NCBI GenBank assembly: GCA_013151255.1
Contig: JAADIQ010000120.1
Location: forward strand, 20,894-84,893
Reading direction: 5' to 3'
Length of the DNA stretch: 64,000 nt
From: Alphaproteobacteria bacterium
GTDB taxonomy: Bacteria; Pseudomonadota; Alphaproteobacteria; Caulobacterales; Parvularculaceae
Position 1 is the first letter of the stretch. Each line of letters starts with the position of its first letter. Of the stretch, positions 4,424 through 21,438 are shown one piece after another. Both the position numbers and the translations under genes were made by a program. The notes beneath the pieces are model-generated. The model was not told the origin of the DNA. It made no database searches and saw only the letters and a list, made by a program, of their open reading frames with translations.

Positions 4424-4563
4424 AGCCGAAAGCACTAGCGAAGGCGGCAAGCCCCCGCAAGGAGGCTTGCAAAGCTTTTCATTCCGGCGCGAACGCTTCT
4501 ATAGTTCAAGCGGAACAGATTTTTGGCAATTCCTTCAATCCGGGGCAATCAGACACCGCTAAG

Positions 4564-7191
4564 ATGTTGCATTTCATAGAGAAGATCCTGATCGCCTGGG
4601 CGGACGCGGCAAGGCGCGGCGGCCTGGCGCTGGCGCTCGGCTTTATCGCCGTGACGGGGTTGGCTGGCTATTACGCCGCTACCCATCTCAAGGTGAACAC
4701 CGACACCAGCGCGATGCTTGATCCGTCGCTGCCATTTCAGCTTCGCGCGGCGGCGCTGCGCGACGCCTTTCCGCAAACCAAAACCGACATCATTGTCATC
4801 GCGCGGGCAAAAACGCTGGACGAGGCGGACGCCTTCATCGCTGATTTGCGCGCCGTGGTCGCAGAAGAAAAGACCGCCTTCACCAGCGTTTTCGCCCCCG
4901 CGCAAGAGCCGTTCTTTCAGAAAAACGGGCTGCTCTATCTCAGCGAAGATGCGCTTGAAGACCGGCTGACGCAGATGTCGAAAGCCTCCGGGTTGATTGA
5001 GACGCTGATCAAAAGCCCGACCATCGGCACGCTATTCACCACCCTTGCCGGCAACGACAAACTCGCCGAGCGCTCCGACCTCGGCCAGGACACGCTGCAA
5101 CAACTCTACAAAGAGTTGAGCGTTGTCGTTGAGGCGAGCATCGAAGGAGAGGTCAGACCGTTCTCGTGGATGGGCGCGCTGGATGAGGACATCGCCGCCA
5201 GCGACAGCCATACGCGGCTCCTATACGCAACGCCGGTGCTCGACTTTAGTCGGCTGCAACCGGCCAAAGCCGGCATCGAAGTTCTGCGCGGCGAAATTGA
5301 CGCGCTGTCTCAAAAATATAGCGGCCGGGTTAAGGCCTATGTCACTGGCGATCCGGCGTTGCGGGTGGAAGAACTTGAAGCGGTCACCACCGGCATCGGC
5401 CTGTCGATGGTGCTTTCGCTGATCCTGGTGAGCCTGCTTTTACTGCTGTGTTACCGCTCCGCGGCGATGGTGGTGCTGACTTTGACCGGGCTCATCATCA
5501 CCTTGGTTTTGACGTCAGCTTTTGCAGCCGCGTTTTTGGGCGAGTTAAATCTGGTTTCCGTCGCCTTTACGGTGTTGCTGATCGGGCTGGGGCTCGATTT
5601 TGCCATTCACCTCCTCTTACATGTGCAAGAGCGCCGCGATGATGGCCAGGACAACGCCGCCGCGCTCACCGGCGCCTTGCATGAGGTTGGCCCGGCGATG
5701 GCGCTGGCCGCGCCGACAACGGCGCTGGCGTTTTTATCTTTTGTGCCGACGAAATTTGACGGCATCGCCCAGCTCGGGATGATTTCCGCCGCCGGGGTGA
5801 TTATCGCCTTTATGGTTTCCGTCACCTTCCTGCCGGCGGCGCTGGCGCGTCTTCCCGCCGCGAAAGTTAGAAAACGAAGCGGCCGCATTCGCGCGATTTT
5901 TCAATCCCTGTCGAAGGTCGCGGGACCGGTCGCGTTCGTGACCGTCCTGATCGGCATCTTTGCGCTCCTGTTAATGCCGCAGGTGCGCTTTGACGCTGAC
6001 CAAATGTCGCTGCGCAACCCCAATGCGCCCTCTGTCATCGGCTTCAATATGCTGTTTGACGACGCGGCAACCGTGCCCTACCGGCTAACCCGGCTGGTCG
6101 GCAGCGAAGCGGCCGCGCGCGAGACCTCAGCCGAGGCGGCGGCGCTGCCATCGGTCGCCAGCACCCGGTCATTGCCGGATTTTGTGCCTGAAGATCAGGA
6201 CGAAAAGCTTGAATTAATCGATTTCGCGGCGGGAACACTGGTGTTCGCCCTCGCCGCCGAGCCCGCCAGCATTGCCGGCCCACCTGCGACTGAGGGTATC
6301 GCCAAATTACAGGCCCGGCTCAAAGAAGCGTATACGGACGGCCCCGGCGCACGCCTTGCTGCACTACTCGGCGATTTGGCGGCAGTGGGCGATCCAGCCG
6401 CTATAGAGCGTCTTGAGCGGAATACCTTTCTCTATTGGCCGCAACTGGTAGAACGCCTGAGCGCGCAAATGAACGCTGATTATATTGATGTCGATAGTTT
6501 GCCCACCTCATTACGCGAGCGATATTTATCAGCGGACGGTATCTGGCGCGTCGACATTCTTCCCAAACAGGACCTACGCGACAACAATGCGCTGAACGCA
6601 TTTGTCGACGACGTCGAAAAACATTTTCCCGATCTTACCGGTGGCGCACTGCAATCGAAAAAAGCTGGTGAGGTTATTTCCAACGCGATGCTTCAGGCGA
6701 CCCTGATTGCATTCGCGGTGATCGCCGTTTTCCTCTGGCTGTTGGTGCGGCGCATCCTGACGGTGCTGCTGGTTCTGTTTCCGTTGTTGCTCGCCGCCAT
6801 CCTCACCGCTGCAACCGGCGTTTTGCTGGACGCGCCGTTTAACTACGCCAATGTCATCGTCTTGCCGTTGTTGATCGGCATCGGCGTCGATAGCGGCATC
6901 CATCTGGTCATGCGCCACGACCAGGTAACCGCCGGCGAAGGCGTCTATGGCACATCAACGCCGCGGGCAGTCCTGTTTGCGGCGCTGACCACGGTCGCCT
7001 CCTTTGGCAGCTTGATGTTGTCACCGCATCGCGGCACCGCCAGCATGGGCGAGTTGCTGACCATCGCCCTCGCGATCACCATAATTTGTACGCTGGTGGT
7101 TTTGCCGGCGGCTTTTAATTACGCCGACAAGCGCCTGAAAGACCGCCTCGAAGCCATGGCCAATCGCCGTAATATTCAGAAGAAACAATAG
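4564..7191 (+). CDS. hpnN: MMPL/RND family hopanoid transporter
   Basis: 875 aa, two TM bundles each with a GxGxD motif (GLGLDFAIH, GIGVDSGIH), large extracytoplasmic loops, hpn context. Confidence 0.85.
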   Translation: MLHFIEKILIAWADAARRGGLALALGFIAVTGLAGYYAATHLKVNTDTSAMLDPSLPFQLRAAALRDAFPQTKTDIIVIARAKTLDEADAFIADLRAVVAEEKTAFTSVFAPAQEPFFQKNGLLYLSEDALEDRLTQMSKASGLIETLIKSPTIGTLFTTLAGNDKLAERSDLGQDTLQQLYKELSVVVEASIEGEVRPFSWMGALDEDIAASDSHTRLLYATPVLDFSRLQPAKAGIEVLRGEIDALSQKYSGRVKAYVTGDPALRVEELEAVTTGIGLSMVLSLILVSLLLLLCYRSAAMVVLTLTGLIITLVLTSAFAAAFLGELNLVSVAFTVLLIGLGLDFAIHLLLHVQERRDDGQDNAAALTGALHEVGPAMALAAPTTALAFLSFVPTKFDGIAQLGMISAAGVIIAFMVSVTFLPAALARLPAAKVRKRSGRIRAIFQSLSKVAGPVAFVTVLIGIFALLLMPQVRFDADQMSLRNPNAPSVIGFNMLFDDAATVPYRLTRLVGSEAAARETSAEAAALPSVASTRSLPDFVPEDQDEKLELIDFAAGTLVFALAAEPASIAGPPATEGIAKLQARLKEAYTDGPGARLAALLGDLAAVGDPAAIERLERNTFLYWPQLVERLSAQMNADYIDVDSLPTSLRERYLSADGIWRVDILPKQDLRDNNALNAFVDDVEKHFPDLTGGALQSKKAGEVISNAMLQATLIAFAVIAVFLWLLVRRILTVLLVLFPLLLAAILTAATGVLLDAPFNYANVIVLPLLIGIGVDSGIHLVMRHDQVTAGEGVYGTSTPRAVLFAALTTVASFGSLMLSPHRGTASMGELLTIALAITIICTLVVLPAAFNYADKRLKDRLEAMANRRNIQKKQ

Positions 7192-7365: not shown

Positions 7366-7998
7366 ATGTTTATGTCTCGGGTTCGCATTTTCGCCGCGCT
7401 GATCGCAGCGGCCTCAGTTACCGCGCCGGTCCAGGCGGCGGACGAGCCAGCGGCGGCGGAAGCGGAAAATTCGCGGATCGACGCTGCGGTCGCCTTTGCC
7501 AAAGCGCTGACCAATGGCGCCACCGTCGCGCTCACCGATGAAACCGCTGACGAGGCGACGCGGCTTGAGAATTTTCGCGTGGTGCTCGCCGACGGGCTCG
7601 CGCTCGACACCATCGGCAGGTTCATGCTCGGCGCGACGCGCAAAACCATGAGCGATGAACAAACCGCGCGCTATAATGCAATTTTTCCACAATATATCAC
7701 AAAACTCTACGCCGAGCAGTTTGACGAGATTGTCGGCAAGCCGCTTGAGGTGGTTGACGCAAAACAAATCGGCGCCCGCGACGTCATCGTCCGCACCCAG
7801 TTTGACCGCAAGGACAACGCGCCGATTATGGTCGACTGGCGCATACGCGAATTACGCTCCGGCGACCGCAAAGCCATCGACATCATCGTCTCCGGCGTCT
7901 CCATCATGTTAGTCAAACGCGAAGAGTTTTCATCGTTTATTGAAACCAATGGGGTCGATGCGTTGCTGGATCGGCTGGAAGTGGAAGCTGCTGGTTAA
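7366..7998 (+). CDS. hpnM: MlaC/Ttg2D family periplasmic lipid carrier (HpnM-like)
   Basis: Signal peptide, VDWR and IDIIVSGVS...REEF motifs of the MlaC family, directly after hpnN. Confidence 0.75.
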   Translation: MFMSRVRIFAALIAAASVTAPVQAADEPAAAEAENSRIDAAVAFAKALTNGATVALTDETADEATRLENFRVVLADGLALDTIGRFMLGATRKTMSDEQTARYNAIFPQYITKLYAEQFDEIVGKPLEVVDAKQIGARDVIVRTQFDRKDNAPIMVDWRIRELRSGDRKAIDIIVSGVSIMLVKREEFSSFIETNGVDALLDRLEVEAAG

Positions 7999-8261: not shown

Positions 8262-9149
8262 TCAGCTCTTCCGCTCAAACACAAAATCCGCGGCGCCTTT
8301 CAGCGGCGCGGCGACATCCCCGAACCGGTCCAAATGCGCTTTCGCGCTTTCCACCAGCTCAGCCGCTTTGGCTTTGGCGCCGTCCATGCCGAACAGTTTG
8401 ATGAAGGTCGCCTTGTCCATTTCGCTGTCCTGCCCGACCGGCTTGCCGAGTGCTTGCGCGTCGCTGGTCTCATCGAGGATGTCGTCGACAATCTGGAAGG
8501 CAAGACCGAGGTCTTCCGCATAGGCGCTGAGCGCTGCGATCTCGTCAGTCGACCCGCCGCCCACAATACCGCCGCCGACCGCGCCAAAGCGGATGAGGGC
8601 GCCGGTTTTCAGGCGCTGTAATTGCGTGACGCCGTCAAGGTCGAAATTCTTTTGCTCGGCATAGATGTCAATCATCTGGCCGCCGACCATGCCTTCCTTG
8701 CCGCTTGCGCGGGCAAGCTCTAGCGCCAGCGCGCAACGGATATTGGCGTCGGGATGGGTTTCTTCCTCCGCCAGAATTTCAAACGCCTGGGTCAACAACG
8801 CATCGCCTGCAAGGATCGCGGTGGCGTCGTCATATTTCTTATGCACCGAAGGCCGCCCGCGTCGCAGGTCGCTATCATCCATCGCCGGCAAATCATCATG
8901 GATGAGGCTGTAACAATGGATCATTTCCACCGCGCAGCTGACCCGAACCGAGCGCACGCGCGGGCAATCAAACATATCCGCCGCGCCAACCACCAGAAAC
9001 GGACGCAGCCTTTTGCCGCCATCAAGCGCGCCCCAGCGCATCGCGTCCGCCACCCGGCCGAGCGGGCCGTCCTGGGTCGGCAGGAATTCATCGAGCGCAG
9101 TCTCCACCAGCGCGGCGATTTCCTTAATGGTTTGAGCAAATACAGACAT
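8262..9149 (-). CDS. ispA: Farnesyl diphosphate synthase / geranyltranstransferase
   Basis: GGKRLRP, SLIHDDLPAMDDSDLRRG, GQMID, KTGAL and FQIVDDILD motifs. Confidence 0.95.
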   Translation of the reverse strand: MSVFAQTIKEIAALVETALDEFLPTQDGPLGRVADAMRWGALDGGKRLRPFLVVGAADMFDCPRVRSVRVSCAVEMIHCYSLIHDDLPAMDDSDLRRGRPSVHKKYDDATAILAGDALLTQAFEILAEEETHPDANIRCALALELARASGKEGMVGGQMIDIYAEQKNFDLDGVTQLQRLKTGALIRFGAVGGGIVGGGSTDEIAALSAYAEDLGLAFQIVDDILDETSDAQALGKPVGQDSEMDKATFIKLFGMDGAKAKAAELVESAKAHLDRFGDVAAPLKGAADFVFERKS

Positions 9150-9168
9150 GACTGCCTTCAAACAGTAA

Positions 9169-10122: not shown

Positions 10123-11121
10123 ATGCCTGCTACCGAAAAGCTGAATGTCCTGCTTGCGCAACCACGCGGCTTCTGCGCCGGCGTTGAGCGGGCGATAGAC
10201 ATTGTCGAGCGGGCGCTGGAGAAATTCGGCGCGCCGGTCTATGTCCGCCACGAGATTGTCCACAACAAATTCGTCGTCGATACGCTGCGCGCGCGCGGCG
10301 CCATCTTCGTTGAGGAAGTCGATGAAGTCCCGACAGGCGCGGTCACCGTGTTTTCCGCCCATGGCGTTGCAAAAAAAGTTGAGAACGGCGCGCTTGAACG
10401 AATGCTGGACGTAATTGACGCAACCTGTCCGCTGGTCACCAAAGTGCACAAAGAAGGCCGCCGCTACGCCGAGAGGGGCTACGACATCGTTCTCATCGGT
10501 CATATCGGTCATCCGGAAGTCGAAGGCACGCTCGGGCAAATTCCGGGCACCGTTCATGTTCTTTCCGAGGCCAACGAAGTCGAAGCTTTAAGCGTCACCG
10601 ATGAAAACCGCGTCGCCTTCGTCACCCAGACCACCCTGTCGGTGAACGACACCAAAGACGTCATCGCCGCGCTCAAAACACGTTTTCCTAATATTATCGG
10701 CCCCGACACCAGAGACATCTGTTACGCCACGCAAAACCGCCAAACCGCGGTTATCGCCATGGCCAAGGAAGTTGATCTGTTGCTGGTGGTCGGCGCCCAT
10801 AATTCCTCAAACTCAAACCGCCTTCGCGAAATCGGCGAGAACAATCACATTCCGAGCTATCTGATCGAAGATGCTTCGATGTTTGACCCGGCCTGGCTTG
10901 AGGGCGTGCACAGAGTTGGTATTACCGCCGGCGCCTCAGCGCCGGAGAGCCTGGTTCAAGACACCATCGCACGGCTGCGCAATTATCGTGATGTCTCGGT
11001 CTCGACCCTCGACGGGGTTGAAGAAAATGTGCATTTCAAGCTGCCGCGCGAGCTGGCTGATGTTCCGCGGCCGGAAGATGCAATGAAAGCCTGGGCCGTT
11101 AGTCCCGTTGAACACGCCTGA
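10123..11121 (+). CDS. ispH: 4-hydroxy-3-methylbut-2-enyl diphosphate reductase
   Basis: [41 protein letters not shown] and SSNSNRL motifs. Confidence 0.97.
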
Positions 11122-11151: not shown

Positions 11152-12306
11152 ATGTCCGTATCATTACACCAGCAAGCCCGCGTCGGCGCCTATGTGGTCA
11201 AGCAGACCCTTATGGGCCGCAAGAAATATCCGCTGGTGCTGTTTCTTGAACCGCTGTTTCGCTGCAACCTCGCCTGCCCGGGCTGCGGTAAAATCGATTA
11301 CCCCGCGCCGATCCTCAACAAGCGTCTGTCGGTCCAGGAATGCTTTGATGCGGTTGATGAATGCGGCGCGCCAGTTGTCGCCATCCCCGGCGGCGAGCCT
11401 TTAATCCATAAGGATATTGGTGAAATCGTCGAGGGCATCGTGGCGCGTAAAAAGTTCGTCTCGCTATGCACCAATGCGCTGCTCCTGGAAAAGAAACTCG
11501 ACCTGTTCAAACCGTCGCCGTTTTTGTTTTTCTCCGTTCACTTAGATGGGCTTGAAGAAGAACACGACCACGCGGTCGACCAAAAAGGCACCTTCAAAAT
11601 TGCCGTTAAAGCGATTAAGGCGGCGCAAGCGCGCGGCTTTCAGGTCAATGTCAACGCCACGATTTTTGACAACATGACCGCGAAACAAGTTGCCGATTAT
11701 CTCGATTTCGCCACCGACCTTGGCGTCAACATTACGATCTCGCCGGGCTACGCCTATGAGCGCGCTGAAGACGCCGACCACTTCTTGTCACGCGAGAAAA
11801 CCAAACAGCTGTTCCGCGATATTTTCAAAATCGGCAAAGACCGCAATCGCCTATGGAACTTCTCGCACTCGTCTTTGTTTCTCGATTTCCTGGCCGGCAA
11901 CCAGGAATATAAATGCACGCCATGGGGCTCGCCCACGCGCAGCGTCTTTGGCTGGCAAAAACCCTGCTACCTGCTTGGCGAGGGTTATGTGTCGTCGTTC
12001 AAGGAACTGATGGAAACGACCGACTGGGACCAATACGGCACCGGCGCTTATGAGAAATGTTCCAACTGCATGGCCCATTGCGGTTATGAGCCGACGGCGG
12101 CGATGGATGCGGTTAAAAATCCGCTGAAAATGTTTAAACTGCCGAACATGTTCAAGATCAAAACCGAAGGCCCAATGGCGCCGGAGATCAATCTTTCCAA
12201 CGCCCGGCCGGCCGTGGACGTCCACGAAAAGCTGGTGGAAGCGGAAATGTCAAAGATCGCAGCTGAGAAAAAGGCGGCCAAACAACGGGACGAGGTCGCG
12301 GCGTAG
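11152..12306 (+). CDS. hpnH: Adenosyl-hopene transferase (radical SAM)
   Basis: LEPLFRCNLACPGCGKI CxxxCxxC motif, GNQEYKCTPWG, CYLL and CSNCMAHCGYE, all typical of HpnH. Confidence 0.93.
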   Translation: MSVSLHQQARVGAYVVKQTLMGRKKYPLVLFLEPLFRCNLACPGCGKIDYPAPILNKRLSVQECFDAVDECGAPVVAIPGGEPLIHKDIGEIVEGIVARKKFVSLCTNALLLEKKLDLFKPSPFLFFSVHLDGLEEEHDHAVDQKGTFKIAVKAIKAAQARGFQVNVNATIFDNMTAKQVADYLDFATDLGVNITISPGYAYERAEDADHFLSREKTKQLFRDIFKIGKDRNRLWNFSHSSLFLDFLAGNQEYKCTPWGSPTRSVFGWQKPCYLLGEGYVSSFKELMETTDWDQYGTGAYEKCSNCMAHCGYEPTAAMDAVKNPLKMFKLPNMFKIKTEGPMAPEINLSNARPAVDVHEKLVEAEMSKIAAEKKAAKQRDEVAA

Positions 12307-12954
12307 AGTTTTTAACGCCGCCGAGCTATCGGCGCCGAGCTTCATCAAAGCCGGAAACTGTTTGGGATCACGCATCGCCGCGCCCAATGTCGCCAGTATG
12401 CGCGTCGATCCGTCTGGCGCAACGGCGCCCAGCGCCGCCGGCGGCAAAGCCCTGTCCGCCGGATCGGCAATCGCGCGGATCGCAAGGAAAGGAACGCCGG
12501 CGCTTGCCGCTGCACGCGCCGCCCCATGGCTTTCCATATCAACGCCAAGCGCATGATGGCTGCGATAGAGCGCGGCTTTTTTCTCGATGCTTTCGATGAT
12601 ATCATCAGCGCCGAACAAAGCGCCAATCTTCGCCGTCGCGGCGGCAGGCTCCTCCGCGATTGTATCCAATAAACGCCGGTCGCTTTCACAGACTTGCCCA
12701 TCGCCGTAGAGAACCCGGTCGCCAATAATCAGATCGCCCGACGCGAGCGATGGATCAAGCCCGCCGGAAACACCGACGCTGACAATCGCGGCAGCGCCCT
12801 CACCGCAAAATTCCCGCGCAATCTCTTCCGCACGCGCAGCATTGGCGCCGGAAACCCCAACACGGATTTTCGGTGCGTCAAGCACACGCAAAATAACCTG
12901 CGCTTCAGATTTCAATCCGCAAATGACGGCGATGAAGTTGTCTACATCTCTCAT
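12250..12954 (-). CDS. hpnG: Hopanoid-associated nucleosidase/phosphorylase
   Basis: PNP/MTAN fold motifs GVSGGLDP, VDMES and IRAIADP; hpn context; ATGA overlap with hpnE. Confidence 0.88.
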   Translation of the reverse strand: MRDVDNFIAVICGLKSEAQVILRVLDAPKIRVGVSGANAARAEEIAREFCGEGAAAIVSVGVSGGLDPSLASGDLIIGDRVLYGDGQVCESDRRLLDTIAEEPAAATAKIGALFGADDIIESIEKKAALYRSHHALGVDMESHGAARAAASAGVPFLAIRAIADPADRALPPAALGAVAPDGSTRILATLGAAMRDPKQFPALMKLGADSSAALKTLRRDLVPLFGRLFLSCDL

Positions 12955-14222
12955 GCAATCGCACGCATCGCCAACGCCGCCGCCTTGTTCCCCGACCTTA
13001 TCGAGCCCTCAATCGTCGCCGGCACCCCGGTGTCGGTGTGATCGCCGGCGAGGAACAAGTTACGATATTCGGTTTCAGCTTTTAGCCGTCTCGCGGCGCC
13101 GGCTGGCGACTGGTCCGGTGTGGCGCGCTTTTCGCGGATTACCCGCACCCGTTCATAGTCCGTGTCGCCCAATTCGAGCGCAGTTTGAACCTCGCGCCAA
13201 ACCTGGTTTACGACATCATCATTGGGACGGTCATCGGCGCCGATGGCGTTTGAAGCGGAAGTTGTGACGCTGATCACGTCGTCGCGCACAAACACCCACT
13301 GCGCCAGCGACGACACAAGTGCGATGAATGGCCCCTCGCCTAACGCCTTCATGGGAGCCGCCGCGCCTAACCGGTAATGTATATTCAAAATGCTGGCGTC
13401 ATCGTTTGGCGGGTCCAACTGCGGCATGATTTGTTTCAATCGCGATGGCGGGATCGCGAAGATTACCTGATCGCCCGCCTCCAGCGTCACCGTCTCATCA
13501 ACAAAAGAAAGGCTGGTCACCGCGCCGCCTTCCATCCACGCGCTGCGCAATCTCGCGCCGAAACGTATGACCCCGCCATTAGATTCGATAAATTTCACCG
13601 CCGGATCAATGAACGCCGGCCCGAGGCCTTGTTTGGCGACCAACGGCGTTGAGGCTTGCCCACCCAGCAGGAAAGTCTCGCGAATGACGCTCCATAACAG
13701 CCGCGCCTGGCCGCGCTCCGGCGTGGTGTTCAACACCGCCAACGTCAATGGCTCCCAAAACCGTTCAAACAACACGCCGTTGCGGTCAATGGCGCCGGCA
13801 ACCGTCTTGTCGGCACCCGCAAGCGCGACGCCAGCAGCTTTTGCGTAGTCCCAAACCTTTGTATCGGGTACGCGAGAATGTTTGCCGAACACCCAGAACG
13901 GGATCGGCCCCTCATTCATCCGCACCGTCCAGCGCTTGCCGGTTTTCACATCGACAAAAGGATAGGCGGCAAAAGGCGGGCCTGTCAGCGCGTCAACCGA
14001 ACCGATCGTATCAAGGAACGCCAGTGCAGACTTGTTGCCCGACATGATCAGATGATTGCCATTGTCGATATCACGCTCGAGATGTTTGTCGTAAAAAGAG
14101 CGGCAGCGCCCGCCCGCTTGTCTCGCGCTTTCATATATGATTACGCGATGTCCGCTCTCAACCAAGCGAACGCCAGCCGCCAGCCCCGCCAGTCCGGCGC
14201 CAATGATATGTACACGGCTCAT
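12951..14222 (-). CDS. hpnE: Hydroxysqualene dehydroxylase
   Basis: FAD motif GAGLAG, GGRCRS, IDNGNHL, EKRAT and TGVPATIEGSIRSG. Confidence 0.93.
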   Translation of the reverse strand: MSRVHIIGAGLAGLAAGVRLVESGHRVIIYESARQAGGRCRSFYDKHLERDIDNGNHLIMSGNKSALAFLDTIGSVDALTGPPFAAYPFVDVKTGKRWTVRMNEGPIPFWVFGKHSRVPDTKVWDYAKAAGVALAGADKTVAGAIDRNGVLFERFWEPLTLAVLNTTPERGQARLLWSVIRETFLLGGQASTPLVAKQGLGPAFIDPAVKFIESNGGVIRFGARLRSAWMEGGAVTSLSFVDETVTLEAGDQVIFAIPPSRLKQIMPQLDPPNDDASILNIHYRLGAAAPMKALGEGPFIALVSSLAQWVFVRDDVISVTTSASNAIGADDRPNDDVVNQVWREVQTALELGDTDYERVRVIREKRATPDQSPAGAARRLKAETEYRNLFLAGDHTDTGVPATIEGSIRSGNKAAALAMRAIA

Positions 14223-14253: not shown

Positions 14254-15150
14254 TTAACCCGCCCACGATCTTGGCGCCTTCAGCCTCGGGGCGACGAACC
14301 AGCGCGCGGCGATCCTTAGTTTCTGGAATTTTGAAATCTCGGGCTTGGGCTGGCCATTGTCCCAGCCGCGCGCCGTCATCATGTTGAGATAGTGTTCATA
14401 AACACCCATCATCAGGAGGGCGGGCCGCAGCATTCTCCAGTCCAGATGAACAAGCGCTGCACGCGTCGCTGCAAATTTTTTGCGCGCTACCGCGGCTAAT
14501 TCTTCACGCACTTGCGGCAGGCCGGGGGCCATCGCGATAGTATCCGGACGGAGCGGGCAGTCATATTTTTTGAGCAGCTCCGCCGGCAGGTAAAGCCGGC
14601 CTTCGCCCGCATCTTCTTCGACATCACGCAATATGTTGGTGAGCTGTAGCGCGTCGCCCAGCGACAAGGCGAAATCCTCCGCCGCCTGGCTTTGCGGCGC
14701 GCCAAACACCGGCATCGACAACATGCCAACGGCGCCGGCGGCGCGGCGGGTATAGGCGAGAAGCCCGTCCATCGTCGGCGCGATAATCGGACCAGCCGCA
14801 TCCATCTCCATGCCCTCGATCACCAGGATGAATTCCCCCTTGGGCAAATCAAAGTCTCTGATATGCTCCAACAGCGCAACACCGGTCGGCGTTGTCGGCG
14901 CGCCGCGATAGAGCCGCTCAATTTCCATCCGCCAGGCGCCGAGCCCGGATTGTTTTTCCTGAAGCGTTCCGGGCTCATCGGCGATATCATCAACCTCGCG
15001 ACAAAAGGCGTAAATCGCATACATCGCTTCGCGCCGCTCTCGTGACAGGATGCGCATGCCGGCGCCAAACGAGGTGCCGGATTTCGCAACCGTCGCCTGC
15101 GCATGGCGGCGCGCCTCGGCAAGGGATATGGCCGGCGCGGCAACGCTCAT
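14254..15150 (-). CDS. hpnD: Presqualene diphosphate synthase
   Basis: SGTSF, YAFCREVDDIAD, GMEMD and LQLTNILRDVEEDA motifs. Confidence 0.93.
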   Translation of the reverse strand: MSVAAPAISLAEARRHAQATVAKSGTSFGAGMRILSRERREAMYAIYAFCREVDDIADEPGTLQEKQSGLGAWRMEIERLYRGAPTTPTGVALLEHIRDFDLPKGEFILVIEGMEMDAAGPIIAPTMDGLLAYTRRAAGAVGMLSMPVFGAPQSQAAEDFALSLGDALQLTNILRDVEEDAGEGRLYLPAELLKKYDCPLRPDTIAMAPGLPQVREELAAVARKKFAATRAALVHLDWRMLRPALLMMGVYEHYLNMMTARGWDNGQPKPEISKFQKLRIAARWFVAPRLKAPRSWAG

Positions 15151-16058
15151 CGCCTTGCGCCCCGACCAGCGGCGAAGAAGCCGCCGACGACGCCGCGCAA
15201 CCCGGCCGAGGCAAGGTCGAGCTTGGTCAACGCCACGCGTGTCGCCAACGGATCGCCCTGCCGCAACAGCACAATCAACCGGTCAGCGACATTGACAATC
15301 ACCGCCGATTCCATCGCCAGATGCCGCGATTGCAGCGCCCTTGGCAATTCGCGTGCGTGCACCATCAACTCATCGCAACAGATCAGCATGCGGTCCACCA
15401 CCCGGCGCAGCCCCGGCGTCAGCGCATCGCCATCAACATCTTCAATAGACGCACCCTCTTGCGCCATCCAGTCGCCGATTAAATACACCCGGTCGAGAGC
15501 GCGCCGGTCATCGCCGCAATCCTGCAGATGATTGACCACCTGCAATACCGTGCAGAGCGCATCAGAATAAACATAACCGCTTTTGTCCTCGCCATGGAGG
15601 TCAAGAAGATAACGCCCGACAGGATTTGCCGACAGCTCGCAATAGCCGAGCAATTCGTCCCAGCTCGCATAGCGATTTTTTTGCGCATCCTGCACGAAGG
15701 CGGCGACAAGGTCGGAGCCGTGCTTTGTGGTCACCCCGGTCGCGCTAAGGCTCTCGCGCAAGGCATGGGCCTTGGCGAGGCGCGGGTCATCGTGCGCCTC
15801 ACCGCGCAGCGCCGCATCGAAGGCGCGCAATCGCGAGATTTTATCTTCCGCCGCCAGCGCCGGATTGTCGGCAATATCATCAATCGCGCGCGCAAACGCA
15901 TAATAGGTCGCAACATGCGGGCGCAGATGTTTCGGCAACAGGAACGAGCCGACGGGAAAGTTTTCATCGCCCGCGCCCTTGCCGGACGGCGTCTCGCTCG
16001 TCTCGCCCGGGGCGTCGGGCGTTGCGGTTTCCGGCGCTGTTTTCAAAGTCGCAGACAT
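15147..16058 (-). CDS. hpnC: Squalene synthase HpnC
   Basis: ENFPVGS, YAFARAIDDIAD, SANPVGR and CTVLQVVNHLQD motifs. Start taken at MSATLK (an upstream ATG is possible). Confidence 0.92.
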   Translation of the reverse strand: MSATLKTAPETATPDAPGETSETPSGKGAGDENFPVGSFLLPKHLRPHVATYYAFARAIDDIADNPALAAEDKISRLRAFDAALRGEAHDDPRLAKAHALRESLSATGVTTKHGSDLVAAFVQDAQKNRYASWDELLGYCELSANPVGRYLLDLHGEDKSGYVYSDALCTVLQVVNHLQDCGDDRRALDRVYLIGDWMAQEGASIEDVDGDALTPGLRRVVDRMLICCDELMVHARELPRALQSRHLAMESAVIVNVADRLIVLLRQGDPLATRVALTKLDLASAGLRGVVGGFFAAGRGARR

Positions 16059-16155
16059 GGCCTGCACATTACGCATTTTGGCTGGTAATCCAAGCGCTTT
16101 GCCTGCGCTGAATACGCCCTTTGCGGGCGCGGCGGCGGCGCTGTAAGCAAGAGCC

Positions 16156-16329
16156 ATGAGCCTTGTCCTGATTGCCGCCGCCGCCTTCCTCGCCTGGATT
16201 TACCTCGCCCCGCCATGGGAAGCAGCCTTTTTTCTTACCGCGACGGGGCTATATACGCTGATGACCGTGGCTTCCGCCTTGCGGCACTGGCGCGGCCAAG
16301 ACGGGCAATGGAAAGGGCGAACTTATTAG
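16156..16329 (+). pseudogene. hpnB: 57-aa ORF resembling the N- and C-termini of glycosyltransferase HpnB fused in frame, with the catalytic domain missing
   Basis: Below the ORF-track cutoff. Manual translation: MSLVLIAAAAFLAWIYLAPPWEAAFFLTATGLYTLMTVASALRHWRGQDGQWKGRTY. The WxYL N-terminal helix and the LYTxMTxxSAxRHWRGxxGxWKGRxY tail are recalled features of HpnB. Adjacent to hpnC. Confidence 0.7.
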
Positions 16330-16480: not shown

Positions 16481-16759
16481 GTGATGATGAGTGACGATAT
16501 CCAACCCTTGGGACCGTTTTACGTCGAACTGGTCTATGAGAAAATCGGCAAAACCGCCACCGACGCGATAGACACCGCTTTCGTCGACGGTTTTTCCAGC
16601 GAGGCGGAAGCCTGGCGCGCCTGTCGTCGGTTACGCCGCGAGCCTTTTGATGCAGTCTCAACGGGCGGTGAGAATATTTTCCTCAAACCCGCTCAGCTGT
16701 TGCAAATGTTCATCGCTAAAGCCGCGCCGACAAATGCCTTCATCTTTGCGGGCGAGTAA
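16481..16759 (+). CDS. Hypothetical protein
   Basis: ORF of about 90 aa with a GAGGA ribosome-binding site just before the ATGs; fills the gap before uspA. No recognised motif. Confidence 0.6.
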   Translation: MMMSDDIQPLGPFYVELVYEKIGKTATDAIDTAFVDGFSSEAEAWRACRRLRREPFDAVSTGGENIFLKPAQLLQMFIAKAAPTNAFIFAGE

Positions 16760-16762
16760 AAA

Positions 16763-17251
16763 CTACCAATCGAGCTTTTTCGCATAGGCTTTTGTGACGA
16801 TAAAGACTGCGCAAGGCGCATCATGGATGAAATGCGTTGATGCGCTGCCCTGGAACAGGGCGCCCCAAAACCCTCGCTGGTGCGAACCGATGACAATCAA
16901 ATCCGCATCGACTTCCGCTGCGAAATCCGACACTGCCTGAGAGGCGTCGCCATCGAGAATAGTGGCGCTGGCGCCCGGCGCATATTTATCCACCAACTCG
17001 CTCAAACGTTCCTGACACACTACGCGCCCTTCTCGATGCATATCAAAGGAGGTTCGCCCGGCGACAGCGCCGGTGACGCCCATATCGGTGGCGAAGGCGG
17101 ATGTCTCAACACTAAGCGGCGGCCAAACGCTCACGGCACGGAGGTTTGCGCCGTTCTTATGCGCGAAGCTATCGGCAACCCGCAAAACATCCGAAGCCAA
17201 TTCATCTGAAACATCAACTGCGGCGATAATACGTTTAAATTGCATGTGCAT
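16763..17251 (-). CDS. Universal stress protein
   Basis: FKRIIAAVD, DADLIVIGSHQRG...GS and APCAVFIV, the UspA signatures. Confidence 0.9.
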   Translation of the reverse strand: MHMQFKRIIAAVDVSDELASDVLRVADSFAHKNGANLRAVSVWPPLSVETSAFATDMGVTGAVAGRTSFDMHREGRVVCQERLSELVDKYAPGASATILDGDASQAVSDFAAEVDADLIVIGSHQRGFWGALFQGSASTHFIHDAPCAVFIVTKAYAKKLDW

Positions 17252-17346
17252 TTCTCCCTGCCTGCTCTAATCCAGAGATGGGCGCAAATAACGCGCATCC
17301 CATGAGACAAGACGCCGCAATTATCTCGGTCCAGGCTATCGCATCA

Positions 17347-18216
17347 CTACGGCGCCAGCACCCGTTTCGGGTGACGGCCATCAACATAGCCCATAAACGG
17401 CGAACATATGGAGTAGCCGAGCAGCTCCTGAACCCGCTCGGGAAGCGCCCGCGCCGCCTCGGGTGGAACCGCCAGGGACATGTTCTCCAGCTGCCGCGTC
17501 CAGCCCGGGCAGTATTGCGGGGTTATAATCAGCCGCGCCGCCGCGGACCGGTTGGCCCCGCCGCGATGCCACAAGGTTCCTTTCGCCAGCGTCAAAGAAC
17601 CGGCCGGCGCTGCCAGCTTCATCGCATCTTCGCGGGCGCCGGGATCGCCGTCGCGGCTTTCAAGGCGTGAGAAATCAGTTTCCGCGACCGCGCCTTCAAT
17701 ATGATCCTCTGGCCAGAGATGACTGCCCGGTAAAATTTCCGTGGCGCCGTTATCATCCGTTGTCGCATCAATCGCCCAAAACGCGCTGACCCCAAGCGAC
17801 GGACGCGGGCGCGGCCATTGGTAATGGCTGTCGTCGAAATGCCAGGGTTGCGCGGTCTCGCCTGGTTGCAAGTTAATCGCCAAACACGCCGACAACAGGC
17901 AATCGCGCCCTAAATCTGCTTCAACGAAGCGCAACGCCAGCGGATGCATGACCAGCTCAGCCAGTACCGGCGACTTCGCCGCCAGCGCGTAGACACGGTT
18001 TGATTTGCGCCCTTCAAATTCGTTGCGCCCGGTGACATTTGCTCCAAGATAGGGCGCCAGCGCTGTTCGAATTTCGTCGATCTGGGCGCCCGTCAGCACT
18101 TTTTCAAAAGTGATATAACCGTCGCGGTCAAACTGACTGCGCCAGTCCTCCATCGAGCGGCCTTTCAGCCAGGGCGCAATAGCGTCATCATTTTGGCGCG
18201 CAGTTTCAACGTTCAT
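17347..18216 (-). CDS. Phytanoyl-CoA dioxygenase family Fe(II)/2-oxoglutarate enzyme
   Basis: QPWHFDD (HxD), NGATEILPGSH and LWHRGGAN motifs. Confidence 0.9.
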   Translation of the reverse strand: MNVETARQNDDAIAPWLKGRSMEDWRSQFDRDGYITFEKVLTGAQIDEIRTALAPYLGANVTGRNEFEGRKSNRVYALAAKSPVLAELVMHPLALRFVEADLGRDCLLSACLAINLQPGETAQPWHFDDSHYQWPRPRPSLGVSAFWAIDATTDDNGATEILPGSHLWPEDHIEGAVAETDFSRLESRDGDPGAREDAMKLAAPAGSLTLAKGTLWHRGGANRSAAARLIITPQYCPGWTRQLENMSLAVPPEAARALPERVQELLGYSICSPFMGYVDGRHPKRVLAP

Positions 18217-18258
18217 AAATACCCTCTCGGCTACATGATCGCGCAGCGCAACGATAAT

Positions 18259-19248
18259 TCAAACCGGTTTCAGCAGTTGTTTGTGTTGCATCCAGTCAAG
18301 TGTTTTCGCCATCGCAGCGTCAACATCGCCCGCCGCCCAGCCGAGCTCGCGGCGCGCTTTTTCGCTGGAGAATGAAACCTGCCTGCCGGCCAGGCGCACG
18401 CCGGTCAACGGCGCCTTTGGCGGCTTGCCGGTAATGGCGGCGATCAGCCTGGTGTCAATCACCCCGGCGGCGAGCGCGACAGCGTAGGGCATCCGGGTTT
18501 TCGGCATCGCCCGTCCGGTCAGCTTTTCCAGCCTGTCGAGAAGTTGTTTCATGGCAATGTTTTCACCACCAAGCAGATAACGCTCTCCGACCTTGCCTTT
18601 GTCGCGAGCGGCGATCAGCCCTTCGGCCAGACTTTCAACGGGAACAAAATTCAAGATGCAATCGATGTAAGCGGGGGTGGCGCCATTGGCGAAGTCGAGG
18701 ATCATTTTCGTCGGAGGCGTCAGGCTGTCGTCGCCCGGCCCCAGCGGTTCAGTCGGCAGCGCAATGACCGCGTCCAGCCCCTCGCCCACCGCCGCCTCGA
18801 CGATGCGCTCCGCCGCCAGCTTTGAGCGCGGATAGGGCCCAAGCATATCGTCAGGGGCAAGCCGCACGGTTTCATCGGCAGTAGACAGACCGATGGGCGT
18901 CGCGCGCCCAACCAGCGTCGTCAGGCTCGAACAATGGACAAGGCGGCGGACGCCAGCCTTCATTACCGCACCAACAACAAGCTCCGTTCCAAGACGATTG
19001 ACGCGGTCAAAGACGCCCGCATCACGCGTCCAAAGCTGGGCGTTGCCCGCGAGATGAAACACCGTTGCAACACCGGTCATGGCGCTGTGCAAAGCGTCGA
19101 TATCAGTGATGGAGCCCTGCACATCATCCGGATGCACAGCAGCAGCAATATCGAAACTGCGCACGGTCTCGCCGCACGCCCGCAAACTTTCGACTAGCTG
19201 CTTGCCGACAAAGCCGGCGCCGCCAGTGACCAGCGTAATACCACTCAC
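18259..19248 (-). CDS. NAD-dependent epimerase/reductase, HpnA/dihydroflavonol-reductase-like
   Basis: TGGAGFVG, VFHLAG, YPRSK (YxxxK), GPGD and GERYLLGGEN motifs. GTG start overlaps the upstream TGA. Confidence 0.85.
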   Translation of the reverse strand: MSGITLVTGGAGFVGKQLVESLRACGETVRSFDIAAAVHPDDVQGSITDIDALHSAMTGVATVFHLAGNAQLWTRDAGVFDRVNRLGTELVVGAVMKAGVRRLVHCSSLTTLVGRATPIGLSTADETVRLAPDDMLGPYPRSKLAAERIVEAAVGEGLDAVIALPTEPLGPGDDSLTPPTKMILDFANGATPAYIDCILNFVPVESLAEGLIAARDKGKVGERYLLGGENIAMKQLLDRLEKLTGRAMPKTRMPYAVALAAGVIDTRLIAAITGKPPKAPLTGVRLAGRQVSFSSEKARRELGWAAGDVDAAMAKTLDWMQHKQLLKPV

Positions 19249-20324
19249 GCTAGCGCCCGGCAGACCAACAGGCCCTCATCGGTGACCGATCCAGCGACCA
19301 ACCCGTCCGGGGTTTGCACCGCCACCGTCGCGGCGCTGAACAGTTTGCCCGACGGGTCGTCAAAGAGGATTTGCAGCGCGCCGGTTTTTGAGTTCGCCTT
19401 AACGATCCGCGACGGCGCCTTGCCGATGCCAAGCTTGCGGTTGAGCGCCAGGCGCACCATCGACGGATGCACCGCCGCAACGATGCCGCCATCATCGGCT
19501 AAGGTCAAATTATCAGGACCGCCAGGCAGTTTGATACGCACCTTCTCCTCCAGCACGCCAGACTGTTCCATCAGGAAAATCAACGCGTTCTCACGCGTCG
19601 CCGCGACCACCACCTCGCCGCTCAAAGTTTGAGCAAGCCCATTGGCAAAAGCCGCACGCTCAAAAAGCCGGGCGCCGCTACCGTCGACAACGCCGCTGCG
19701 CTTCATGCGGAAGATATCCTCCACGCCGGCCATCCAGTTGCAGGCGTTATGGTCAAAGCTGGTATAAGTCCCGCGGGACGTCGCTAAAACATCATTGGCG
19801 TTGCAGGGAACGCTGTCTTTTTCCGCCACCACCAAGGCGCCGCCGGCGCCAATACGCTGCAAATGCGGCTCCATCTTCCATCCGCGTCCGGAGCGATGAT
19901 AGGCGCGGTTGATAAAGACTAACTCGCGGTTCGCCGGATCATAAGAAATTCCATGCGGCCGGAGCCCACCGGCGATTTCGCCGGGCGCAATCAACGGCTT
20001 TGCTTTGACGGACGCAGTCTCGACTGCAAATATCTCCGGCAACGAAACCTCATAGACGCCGCCTTCGGGTATTTTGCGGTTGCGCTTTCGCGCCGCACGC
20101 TCAACGCTGCGACGATTATAGACCGATACAAATAACCGGCCGGCGGCGGGCTCGATGGCGAAATCTTCCGCGCCGCGCAACTTCGCGCCGGTGACGGCGT
20201 CAACCAGCGCCACCCGACGGCATTGCGCATCGGAATATTGCGCCGGACCGATTTGCGCCCGCCCGCAAGCGCTGAGCGCGCCGAGCCCCAAGGCAACCAG
20301 AAATTTAAGCCGCCGTCTCCGCAT
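19245..20324 (-). CDS. Paraoxonase/arylesterase-like six-bladed beta-propeller lipoprotein
   Basis: GAEDF, LRPHGIS, NANDV, FANG and GPDNL are PON-type Ca-binding motifs. Signal MRRRRLKFLVALGLGALSAC carries a lipobox. Confidence 0.75.
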   Translation of the reverse strand: MRRRRLKFLVALGLGALSACGRAQIGPAQYSDAQCRRVALVDAVTGAKLRGAEDFAIEPAAGRLFVSVYNRRSVERAARKRNRKIPEGGVYEVSLPEIFAVETASVKAKPLIAPGEIAGGLRPHGISYDPANRELVFINRAYHRSGRGWKMEPHLQRIGAGGALVVAEKDSVPCNANDVLATSRGTYTSFDHNACNWMAGVEDIFRMKRSGVVDGSGARLFERAAFANGLAQTLSGEVVVAATRENALIFLMEQSGVLEEKVRIKLPGGPDNLTLADDGGIVAAVHPSMVRLALNRKLGIGKAPSRIVKANSKTGALQILFDDPSGKLFSAATVAVQTPDGLVAGSVTDEGLLVCRALA

Positions 20325-21438
20325 CCCGCGTCCCCTCGCCGCTTTGCGTGTCCTCGCCACCGGGACGGTCATAGCCCCATTTTTCAATCCAGTGGCCAAG
20401 CCGCGCTTCAACTTTCGCCGCCGCGTCATCGCTATAATCGAATTTATTCTTCTCAAAGCTTTTCACCGAAGCAAGATAACGCTCAAACGCGCCGCGGCTG
20501 GTCTCAAATCCTGGCAGCCCCAAGGCTCCATAGATTTTCTCAACCGCTTGCATGGGGCTCGCGTCAAGCTCGTCATAACGCAGCTCAACCAGCTGTTCAG
20601 AAGACACCGATTGCACATCACTCTCATAGGCGCGCATCATCCGGTCATAGACCGACAAAACCGTCTCATCGATATCGACATGGTCATAGCTCTGGAGCGC
20701 CAGCTCCTTCAAGAGTTTGGTGTAAAAATTCCGCATCGAGACGAATACGTCATAAGGGTTGCGGTGAATGTGGACAAATTTGGCGCCCGGAAACATCTCG
20801 CGCAACATCGCCAGCCTTCCGGTATAGACCGGGTTTTTAATCAGCAGCGGCTTTTCGCCCTGATGCAGATAAAGCTTGCGCAGGAAATACGTAAACTGTT
20901 TGCGCCAGCCGCGAATATCCGCCGTTGAACATCCGTCGAAAAACAGCCCGCGCTGAACATTTTCAGCGAAGGCGCGCGGAAAATAGATGCCGTGATAGAA
21001 CGAGACATCAGACATATTGGCGATGGCGATTTCATCTTCTTGCGGGCTGTCCGGGCGGACCGGAATATTGTCGATATAACGATGCTCGGGAAGCGCGCGC
21101 TCCAGCAACGGATTGAAGACTTTGGCGAGACCAAACAAATCCCAGGGCAGCCCCGTCGCCACCGGCGGCACGAAACCCCAGGCGCCGCTCTGGCACATGA
21201 TGTTGTAGAGATGGGTCGTGCCCGAGCGCCAATGGCCAAGGATGAAAACCGGCGCCGGCATATCCTCAAGCGACGGCAGGCGGCGCTCCATCGCCAGCTT
21301 CTCCGCGGTTGAAAACGGCCAGCGCACGGCCGACGCCAGGCCGACAAGCGCGCCCTCGCCGACCCGGTCCGGCAGGCCCGAGCGTCCGACCACCGTCGCC
21401 AGCGTTGCGAGATTGGCTCCACATAAGGGATGCGCCAT
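20305..21438 (-). CDS. PAPS-dependent sulfotransferase (Sulfotransfer_3-type)
   Basis: 5'-PSB loop FILGHWRSGTTHL, LLIKNP, and 3'-PB motif IHRNPYDVFVS. Confidence 0.9.
   Translation of the reverse strand: MAHPLCGANLATLATVVGRSGLPDRVGEGALVGLASAVRWPFSTAEKLAMERRLPSLEDMPAPVFILGHWRSGTTHLYNIMCQSGAWGFVPPVATGLPWDLFGLAKVFNPLLERALPEHRYIDNIPVRPDSPQEDEIAIANMSDVSFYHGIYFPRAFAENVQRGLFFDGCSTADIRGWRKQFTYFLRKLYLHQGEKPLLIKNPVYTGRLAMLREMFPGAKFVHIHRNPYDVFVSMRNFYTKLLKELALQSYDHVDIDETVLSVYDRMMRAYESDVQSVSSEQLVELRYDELDASPMQAVEKIYGALGLPGFETSRGAFERYLASVKSFEKNKFDYSDDAAAKVEARLGHWIEKWGYDRPGGEDTQSGEGTRDAETAA

Follow-up and report, generated by a model that had tools for sequence, protein, structure and literature searches.

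A sulfotransferase, a PON1-like lipoprotein and an HpnA-like short-chain dehydrogenase/reductase as a mobile cassette of alphaproteobacterial hopanoid clusters

What a sulfotransferase and a relative of the mammalian enzyme PON1 are doing beside the genes of hopanoid synthesis (hpn) is the question raised by five co-oriented genes in the genome of a member of the Parvularculaceae. Hopanoids correspond in bacteria to the sterols, and in fossil form they serve as major geochemical biomarkers. The stretch analyzed here (hereafter the window) comprises 64,000 nucleotides (nt) of contig JAADIQ010000120.1 in assembly GCA_013151255.1, positions 20,894 to 84,893 of the forward strand. An earlier reading of its letters, the first-pass annotation, had described an operon-like lipid-tailoring block tied to the hpn genes, and this description is borne out. 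The first three genes of the block, encoding a sulfotransferase, an exported hydrolase of the paraoxonase (PON) type and an NAD-type, HpnA-like dehydrogenase, form a coupled, mobile cassette of the hpn cluster found in at least 13 alphaproteobacterial families. With a probability of roughly 0.55, we predict that this cassette tailors the extended hopanoid side chain, yielding an undescribed sulfated, possibly acidic, hopanoid.

A gene trio kept beside the hopanoid genes

The five open reading frames (ORFs) were confirmed by reading the ORFs of the window, and all lie on the minus strand between 16763 and 21438:

20305–21438, minus strand: sulfotransferase of the type that uses 3'-phosphoadenosine-5'-phosphosulfate (PAPS), 377 aa, first gene of the cassette, cytoplasmic (PF13469)
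19245–20324, minus strand: PON1-homologous six-bladed propeller lipoprotein, 359 aa, exported (lipobox and PON1 homology)
18259–19248, minus strand: HpnA-like short-chain dehydrogenase/reductase of the extended type (SDR, ‘HpnA2-type’), 329 aa, GTG start (TIGR03466 below cut-off)
17347–18216, minus strand: PhyH-type Fe(II)/2-oxoglutarate dioxygenase, 289 aa, accessory and lineage-specific (PF05721)
16763–17251, minus strand: universal stress protein (Usp), 162 aa, accessory (PF00582, E 2.3e-20)

The family names first given to the sulfotransferase, the PON-like protein and the dioxygenase are correct, and the fifth gene, which had been left unnamed, encodes the Usp. The first three genes had been described as overlapping at their starts and stops, and both overlaps can be read directly in the sequence: 20 nt between the sulfotransferase and PON-like genes (20305–20324), and a 4-nt GTGA that joins the TGA of the PON-like gene to the GTG of the SDR gene (19245–19248). 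Across ~70 related loci, these two junctions most often measure −20 nt and −4 nt, and the overlaps therefore lie far beyond chance. An alternative TTG start of the PON-like gene exists at 20456; since the homologues are nearly all 356–365 aa long, almost uniformly ~359 aa, the start is placed at the ATG at 20324. A consensus scan for promoters and terminators was uninformative, returning 3 promoter-like sites against 4.0 expected and terminator-like sites that are mostly intragenic. The block is divergent from tamA (Omp85 plus POTRA) and tamB, and hpnC-D-E-G lie downstream on the same strand.

When each species was represented by a single genome, a pattern scan yielded 61 loci. All belong to Parvularculaceae, in the genera Marinicaulis, Hyphococcus, Amphiplicatus and Parvularcula, and the sulfotransferase/PON-like/SDR trio is kept in them wherever the contig extends. 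The family order, at 42–92% identity, is tamB<tamA< >SulfoT>PON>SDR>[PhyH>Usp]<HpnB>HpnC>D>E>G<HpnH<IspH. Wider samples, ~780 Pseudomonadota genomes in total including an even sample of 401 Alphaproteobacteria, contain the cassette core in 17 further Alphaproteobacteria from 12 other families. Strong PON-like matches outside Parvularculaceae occur in eight genomes (five families) of the 401-genome sample, all eight within a sulfotransferase–PON–SDR trio; seven of these trios adjoin hpnB/CDE/(shc)/G/H/ispH, and the contig carrying the eighth ends just past the trio. Sulfotransferase orthologs of at least 49% identity are present in 16 genomes from 12 families of the same sample, and HpnH was found in 16 of these 16 genomes versus 123 of the 401 overall (Fisher p = 3e-9, kinship uncorrected). 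Orthologs of 49–96% identity adjoin hpn genes.

Outside Parvularculaceae, hpn genes stand within 10 kb of the cassette in 14 of the 15 carriers in the 401-genome sample, and all 15 have hpnH. Occurrence of the block independently of hpn genes, which the first-pass annotation had named as the outcome that would speak against its proposal, was thus not seen. The surroundings vary in other respects: one family joins the trio directly to shc-hpnG-hpnH without hpnCDE (locus L096). The phylum-level sample contributed one more alphaproteobacterial family with the full trio and hpn arrangement. Named carriers include Candidatus Phaeomarinobacter ectocarpi/Pyruvatibacter and Minwuia. In other classes of the phylum, sulfotransferase matches reach only ~30% identity and lie away from hpn genes; they were treated as paralogs. 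As tamAB adjoins the cassette only in Parvularculaceae, a functional partnership with it was rejected; the neighbour that stays constant is hpn.

Three core proteins and their accessories

The sulfotransferase matches PF13469 (Sulfotransfer_3) with 107.4 bits (cut-off 27, E 1.7e-30). Its 5'-phosphosulfate-binding (5'-PSB) motif, GHWRSGTT at residues 68–75, and a second motif, HIHRNPYDVFVS from residue 223 (pattern HIHRNP..S), are both invariant among the 15 sequences of alignment A3. From the usual features of the fold, we take the two to be the PAPS-binding elements, namely the 5'-phosphosulfate loop and the Arg/Ser of the 3'-phosphate site. The closest solved structures, by sequence and by fold, are mycobacterial Stf1 (2zq5) and Stf9 (2z6v), with sequence E-values of 9e-5 and 2e-4, a fold E-value of 5e-8 and 16–18% identity; the third and fourth fold matches are the activating domains of OLS (4gox) and CurM (4gbm). 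One Hyphococcus chromosome carries a second PF13469 sulfotransferase, of 400 aa and on the opposite strand, between PhyH and Usp (L033 12889-14091, minus strand).

The PON-like protein escapes the standard family models. It matched no Pfam family at E <= 0.01, Arylesterase (PF01731) included, and no NCBIfam family either; a narrow profile of its close relatives (A1) had no PDB sequence match even at E <= 1. A wider profile (A2, 19 sequences), in which orthologs at 24–35% identity were added to the family, retrieves PON1 (1v04) at E 2.8e-26, and the family ranked second reaches 5e-7. The AlphaFold2 (AF2) model is a confident six-bladed propeller with a predicted local distance difference test (pLDDT) score of 87, and the ten best Foldseek matches in the PDB are all PON1 (E 6e-17, template-modelling (TM) scores of 0.70/0.75), ahead of strictosidine synthase. 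Residues H124, N177/D178, N228, D271/N272 and H286 are aligned to PON1 H115, N168/D169, N224, D269/N270 and H285, and are invariant in 19 sequences. The counterpart of PON1 E53/D54 is an invariant G-x-E-D motif lying outside the hidden Markov model (HMM) alignment, the equivalence being by position only. PON1 H134, the partner of H115 in the proposed lactonase dyad, corresponds to Arg140 in the window protein, and this position is Arg in most members and His in a few.

Export of the PON-like protein is indicated by a lipobox, LSAC, with an invariant Cys20; a lipobox or signal peptide is present in every ortholog examined, and several further cysteines are invariant. A cysteine pair near the two termini resembles the C42–C353 disulfide of PON1. 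PON1 is a calcium-dependent lipo-lactonase whose N-terminus holds it on high-density lipoprotein (HDL). The PON-like call made at first reading is supported by both profile and fold. The protein belongs genuinely, if distantly, to the paraoxonase lineage; it is exported, and Pfam's Arylesterase model fails to pick it up. Two weaker PON-like propeller paralogs, scoring 69 and 52 bits against the family profile, lie close together on another contig of the same genome (G000:C112:19026-24730); this pair is unrelated to the hpn cluster.

The SDR had been read as an HpnA-like reductase; it is not canonical HpnA, and the reductase reading is not supported. The protein falls into the Epimerase/3Beta_HSD families of Pfam, with 3wj7 as its nearest PDB entry (E 6e-48), and scores 301.9 bits against the HpnA model TIGR03466, below the cut-off of 367.65. 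HpnA model scores in the 401-genome sample are bimodal: 90 genomes lie above the cut-off, at 395–523 bits, whereas the SDRs of the 16 sulfotransferase carriers all score low (248–352 bits), with canonical HpnA in 0 of 16. The same alternation is visible within a single family (f69), where canonical HpnA occurs in one genus that lacks the cassette, and the cassette in another that lacks canonical HpnA. In a maximum-likelihood tree, the cassette SDRs form a clade (approximate likelihood-ratio test (aLRT) support 100, stem length 1.1) apart from that of canonical HpnA (aLRT 98), which takes in all the SDRs of the cassette together with six ‘intermediate’ ones. The cassette SDR in most of the inspected loci lies directly beside hpnB, the usual position of hpnA.

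Cofactor motifs separate the two clades as well. The window protein has TGGAGFVG at residues 8–15, Asp33 at the end of β2 and YPRSK at 139–143, with the catalytic YxxxK intact, and the Gly-rich motif and Tyr-x3-Lys are kept across the cassette clade. That clade combines TGGxGFxG with an Asp at the β2 end (VRxFDL), versus TGAxGFVG and L-x-R-P-x-S-D-R-R-N in canonical HpnA. By the usual SDR rules, the motif of the cassette clade is that of NAD(H)-dependent enzymes and the motif of canonical HpnA that of NADP(H)-dependent ones. The NAD-type motif therefore points to a dehydrogenase, not a reductase, and by this motif we infer an NAD-type dehydrogenase. Sub-cut-off score, separate clade and NAD-type motif together rule out canonical HpnA. 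SDRs of the cassette clade also occur between uvrA and uvrB, or beside uvrB (L120 4739-5728, L121 6021-7043, L125 ~4255-5169), in 1.6–1.8 Mb genomes of HpnH-positive Alphaproteobacteria without the sulfotransferase.

PhyH and Usp stand outside this core. The PhyH-type protein is well matched by PF05721 (93.3 bits, cut-off 22, E 3.4e-26), its iron triad is present (H126-x-D128 with distal His217), and its nearest solved relatives are the meroterpenoid dioxygenases PrhA, SptF and AusE (E ~3e-14). PhyH is found in 35 and Usp in 34 of the 61 Parvularculaceae loci, with the order of the two swapped in some, and no PhyH ortholog was found in the out-of-family cassette loci inspected. Present in only about half of the family loci, both were rejected as core members, and with PhyH outside the core the four-enzyme route of hydroxylation, reduction and sulfation is not supported.

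Other oxygenases recur nearby. In 15 of 61 relatives, though not in the window, hpnD and hpnE are separated by a YbiX-like 2-oxoglutarate-Fe(II) oxygenase (PF13640, 237–241 aa; for example L005 17078-17797, plus strand), another candidate hopanoid or squalene hydroxylase. In genome G308 (L100 4927-12393), from another alphaproteobacterial family, the sulfotransferase is divergent from the SDR, with no PON-like gene, beside hpnB-CDEG; a cytochrome P450, a non-orthologous PhyH and dxr flank the sulfotransferase. Such oxygenases would fit a variable hydroxylation before sulfation, outside the conserved core.

The hopanoid pathway and a proposed side-chain route

Whether a hopanoid is available to the cassette depends on the genes around it and elsewhere in the assembly. 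Those in the window are:

15147–16157, minus strand: hpnC (HpnC 273.8 bits, above the NCBIfam cut-off)
14254–15150, minus strand: hpnD (HpnD 281.4 bits, above the NCBIfam cut-off)
12951–14222, minus strand: hpnE (HpnE 351.8 bits, above the NCBIfam cut-off)
12250–12954, minus strand: hpnG (HpnG 189.1 bits, above the NCBIfam cut-off)
11152–12306, plus strand: hpnH, convergent with hpnG (HpnH TIGR03470, 533 bits)
10123–11121, plus strand: ispH, convergent with hpnG (IspH NF002188, 483.7 bits)
4564–7191, plus strand: hpnN transporter (HpnN TIGR03480, 768 bits; MMPL Pfam match)
7366–7998, plus strand: MlaC/HpnM-like protein (MlaC Pfam match)
8262–9161, minus strand: polyprenyl synthase (polyprenyl_synt Pfam match)
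16156–16329, plus strand: relic of hpnB, a hopanoid-associated family 2 glycosyltransferase (GT2) (TIGR03469, partial match)
44873–45421, plus strand: adenosine-5'-phosphosulfate (APS) kinase domain of a 653-aa CysNC-type ORF (TIGR00455, 257 bits; contig position G000:C61:65766-66314)

The cluster had been called cyclase-less, which is true locally but not of the genome. Squalene-hopene cyclase (SHC) is intact among unrelated genes on another contig, C110 (G000:C110:16050-18068; L065 7051-9069), where it scores 686–699 bits against TIGR01507 (cut-off 431). Five relatives, including complete Hyphococcus and Marinicaulis chromosomes and the type strain of Amphiplicatus metriothermophilus, have one SHC each above the cut-off, far from the hpn cluster (loci L075–L079); scores in Hyphococcus, Marinicaulis, Amphiplicatus and the source genome are 661–699 bits. 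An unlinked shc is therefore the norm in Parvularculaceae and not a loss. A 2025 survey of alphaproteobacterial hopanoids places Hyphococcus, Marinicaulis and Amphiplicatus metriothermophilus among the genera without shc (PMC12583986), and this listing is contradicted by the SHC matches.

The hpnB gene, by comparison, is lost. Its relic matches TIGR03469 with 35.9 bits over model positions 322–384, the C-terminal part, and holds one TAA; most relatives have an intact HpnB (478–496 bits) at the same place and on the same strand. The loss is common only to the source genome and its nearest relative (L004), and the cassette therefore long predates it. The cassette coexists with intact HpnB in 46 of 61 loci, and SHC is present in the source genome and the five relatives; a replacement for a lost HpnB/SHC branch, as had been suggested, is therefore not supported. 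The idea of a sulfated triterpenoid product, put forward in the same breath, remains reasonable. With SHC, HpnH, HpnG and HpnN all present, the genome is equipped to produce C35 hopanoids and to deliver them to the outer membrane. HpnI, HpnJ and HpnK were not found in the source genome (a 92%-complete assembly of 131 contigs), so that no known head-group route competes. PAPS supply is also encoded in the genome, the APS-kinase domain lying ~23 kb from the cassette.

Two features at the hpnB relic are worth recording. The space separating the relic from usp holds a 91-aa ORF (16484–16759, plus strand) that runs towards usp, matches no Pfam family and has counterparts of 34–99% identity at the same position in 14 related Parvularculaceae loci; with position and sequence kept in this way, it is probably a genuine small gene. 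The longest hpnC ORF begins at 16157 on the minus strand, back to back with the ATG of the relic at 16156 on the plus strand. As the HpnC model aligns only from residue 61, the true start of hpnC is probably a downstream Met, which would make space for a divergent promoter.

How might the three core enzymes act on such a hopanoid? The cassette would convert the HpnG product or bacteriohopanetetrol (BHT). The SDR would oxidize a position on the side chain of the HpnG product in the cytoplasm, the most economical guess being the conversion of the ribosylhopane lactol to the ribonolactone. The sulfotransferase would transfer the sulfate of PAPS to a hydroxyl of the side chain. On the periplasmic side, once export has taken place, a lactone or ester would be opened or removed by the PON-type lipo-lactonase anchored in the membrane, and the envelope would be left with an anionic hopanoid that is sulfated and possibly carboxylated. 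PhyH, and the YbiX-like oxygenase in relatives, may add an extra hydroxyl in some lineages, and Usp would be a passenger or a regulator. This scheme is the most economical, because each enzyme is used for the chemistry typical of its family. Its fully specified form, in which lactol oxidation to the ribonolactone, hydroxyl sulfation and, after export, PON-type opening to the 35-oic acid follow in that order to give a doubly anionic hopanoid, is tentative and probably wrong in at least some detail.

Several observations weigh against the prediction of a sulfated hopanoid. The acceptor of the sulfotransferase is not deducible, since it has 16–18% identity to any solved enzyme and its AF2 model is of middling quality (pLDDT 68 overall, and under 50 in the loops likely to bind the acceptor). 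With two enzymes, the sulfotransferase and the SDR, in the cytoplasm and the PON-like protein in the periplasm, the order of steps is guesswork. In Minwuia the trio is 129 kb from hpnH; three carriers (G308, G163 and G168) have no PON-like gene next to the sulfotransferase; and a Parvularculaceae-like metagenome-assembled genome (L050 8644-11119) has the PON-like and SDR genes beside hpnB-CDEG without an adjacent sulfotransferase. Six SDRs of the cassette clade occur without the sulfotransferase and away from the probed hpn genes; a partner shared by these ‘intermediate’ SDRs was sought, and their neighbours (uvrA/uvrB, EamA, succinyl-CoA ligase, MMPL) were uninformative. The co-occurrence counts overstate independence because the compared genomes are related. 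Finally, a literature search for sulfated bacteriohopanes found none, and the hopanoid survey mentions no sulfated derivative (PMC12583986). In the genome L050 itself, a MutY-type gene stands upstream in place of the sulfotransferase and tamAB, and this natural variant could reveal the role of the PON-like and SDR pair without an adjacent sulfotransferase.

The distance between trio and hpnH in Minwuia, the same-clade SDRs between uvrA and uvrB and the divergence of the block from tamAB in Parvularculaceae would all suit a cassette acting on some other envelope molecule, such as lipid A or lipopolysaccharide (LPS), a glycolipid, a carotenoid or an ornithine lipid, with hpn proximity reflecting co-regulation or inherited synteny. 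We consider this unlikely: hpn genes are the sole constant neighbour over 13 families and tamAB is not, hpnH is present in all ortholog carriers, and these carriers are without canonical hpnA, and mostly hold the SDR in the hpnA position beside hpnB; in family f69, one genus has canonical HpnA and another the cassette. A different proposal retains the hopanoid and discards the sulfate. Here sulfation would be a transient activation, the sulfate serving as leaving group in an elimination or cyclization by the hydrolase or SDR, and the final hopanoid (with an anhydro or unsaturated side chain, for example) would be sulfate-free. The fold matches to the OLS and CurM domains speak for it, the tight coupling of a sulfotransferase to a hydrolase-type enzyme resembles sulfotransferase–thioesterase (ST-TE) logic, and sulfated hopanoids would go unreported for good reason. 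However, with the hydrolase exported and the sulfotransferase cytoplasmic, a labile activated intermediate would have to cross the membrane; Stf-type enzymes outrank the CurM and OLS domains as matches; and some genomes have sulfotransferase and SDR without a nearby PON-like gene. On balance, transient activation is distinctly unlikely.

Hydroxylation, reduction and sulfation of squalene or another acyclic isoprenoid, with a sulfated triterpenoid other than a hopanoid taking the place of a lost SHC/HpnB branch, must be judged highly unlikely. The cassette is most often directly beside hpnB-hpnCDE, the squalene-synthesis genes, hpnB is truly lost in the source genome, and Stf3 with Cyp128 provides a precedent for sulfating an isoprenoid chain (PMC7404182). 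Against these stand the intact SHC of the source genome and of all five relatives checked, the retention above cut-off of the post-cyclization genes hpnH, hpnG and hpnN, the fusion of the L096 trio to shc-hpnG-hpnH without hpnCDE, the place of PhyH outside the conserved core and a loss of hpnB much younger than the cassette. It would be more surprising still if the genes were functionally unrelated neighbours, the PON-like protein being, for instance, a quorum-quenching acyl-homoserine-lactone lactonase and the sulfotransferase acting on a soluble metabolite. Bacterial PON relatives are indeed described as homoserine-lactone lactonases, in the account of Bar-Rogovsky et al. 2013 given by PMC9937041, but the start/stop overlaps are kept in ~70 loci, down to 24–35% protein identity, and the three genes move together between genomic contexts. 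We regard such independence as very improbable.

The prediction of a sulfated hopanoid thus retained has consequences for both lipid and enzyme. According to the survey in PMC12583986, what HpnA and HpnB do has yet to be worked out, and the surroundings of hpn clusters show no obvious additional candidate genes; a literature search found no report of a sulfotransferase in such clusters. In these marine Alphaproteobacteria the cassette predicts a class of lipid that standard hopanoid work-ups, based on positive ions or acetylation, would miss. The calculated [M-H]- values are 627.430 for a bacteriohopanetetrol monosulfate, 561.452 for the 35-oic acid and 641.409 for the sulfate of that acid. 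Its carriers include cultured strains, among them Hyphococcus luteus SY-3-19, Hyphococcus sp. DH-69, Amphiplicatus metriothermophilus CGMCC 1.12710 and Pyruvatibacter spp. The native substrates of paraoxonases are a matter of debate, and the cassette adds to that family a bacterial protein whose genomic partners are defined. Should the doubly anionic route prove true, it would give the first sulfated hopanoid, define for the first time a physiological lipid substrate of a paraoxonase-family enzyme and assign a reaction type to HpnA-like SDRs.

Relation to known systems

Among characterized systems, the canonical hpn clusters of Zymomonas, Rhodopseudomonas and Bradyrhizobium are the natural reference. 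The likeness lies in hpnC, D, E, G, H and N and ispH, all above cut-offs, and in an SDR beside the hpnB position. In contrast, the SDR here belongs to a separate clade, and the two genes ahead of it have never been counted as hpn genes; in Parvularculaceae shc lies apart from the cluster, and in the window hpnB is a relic.

Each core enzyme has relatives of its own. For the PON-like protein, the comparison with PON1 (1v04, 3sre and 3srg) extends from homology and TM scores of 0.70–0.75 to the ligand residues and to N-terminal anchoring on a lipid surface; unlike PON1, the protein is bacterial, is anchored as a lipoprotein or through a signal peptide, has mostly Arg in place of H134 and shares its operon with sulfotransferase and SDR genes. 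The sulfotransferase is nearest, in sequence and fold, to Stf1 and Stf9 of the mycobacterial Stf1/Stf9/Stf3 group, and oxygenases (PhyH, YbiX-like, P450) recur near the cassette. Stf3 sulfates menaquinone-9 after hydroxylation by Cyp128, giving the sulfomenaquinone S881 (PMC7404182). The name Stf3 on the nearest protein cluster is one source's automatic label, and the comparison was made with Stf1 and Stf9. The differences are the identity of 16–18% and the acceptor, here presumably a hopanoid and not a quinone. In the ST-TE pairs of CurM and OLS (4gbm and 4gox), a PAPS sulfotransferase is likewise functionally paired with a hydrolase, but those are cytoplasmic domains of a single megasynthase working on acyl chains bound to an acyl carrier protein (ACP), whereas here separate proteins occupy two compartments. 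The fungal meroterpenoid dioxygenases PrhA, SptF, AusE and AndA, the nearest solved relatives of PhyH, oxidize polycyclic terpenoid scaffolds; their similarity to the PhyH-type protein is distant, and PhyH is only accessory here.

For the predicted product, precedents exist by analogy. Bacteroides BT_0416 is a bacterial cholesterol sulfotransferase (PMC9417993). It may be compared as an enzyme sulfating a polycyclic, triterpenoid-derived membrane lipid, a functional analogy only, but it acts on a host-derived sterol and outside a biosynthetic cluster. An acidic hopanoid could find a parallel in Bradyrhizobium, as a precedent for an anionic hopanoid but without sulfate. There, hopanoid-lipid A reportedly carries 34-carboxyl-bacteriohopane-32,33-diol, an anionic, side-chain-oxidized hopanoid of the outer membrane whose biosynthetic enzymes are said to be unknown. 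Set beside all of these, the cassette is an undescribed variant within a known type of hopanoid cluster.

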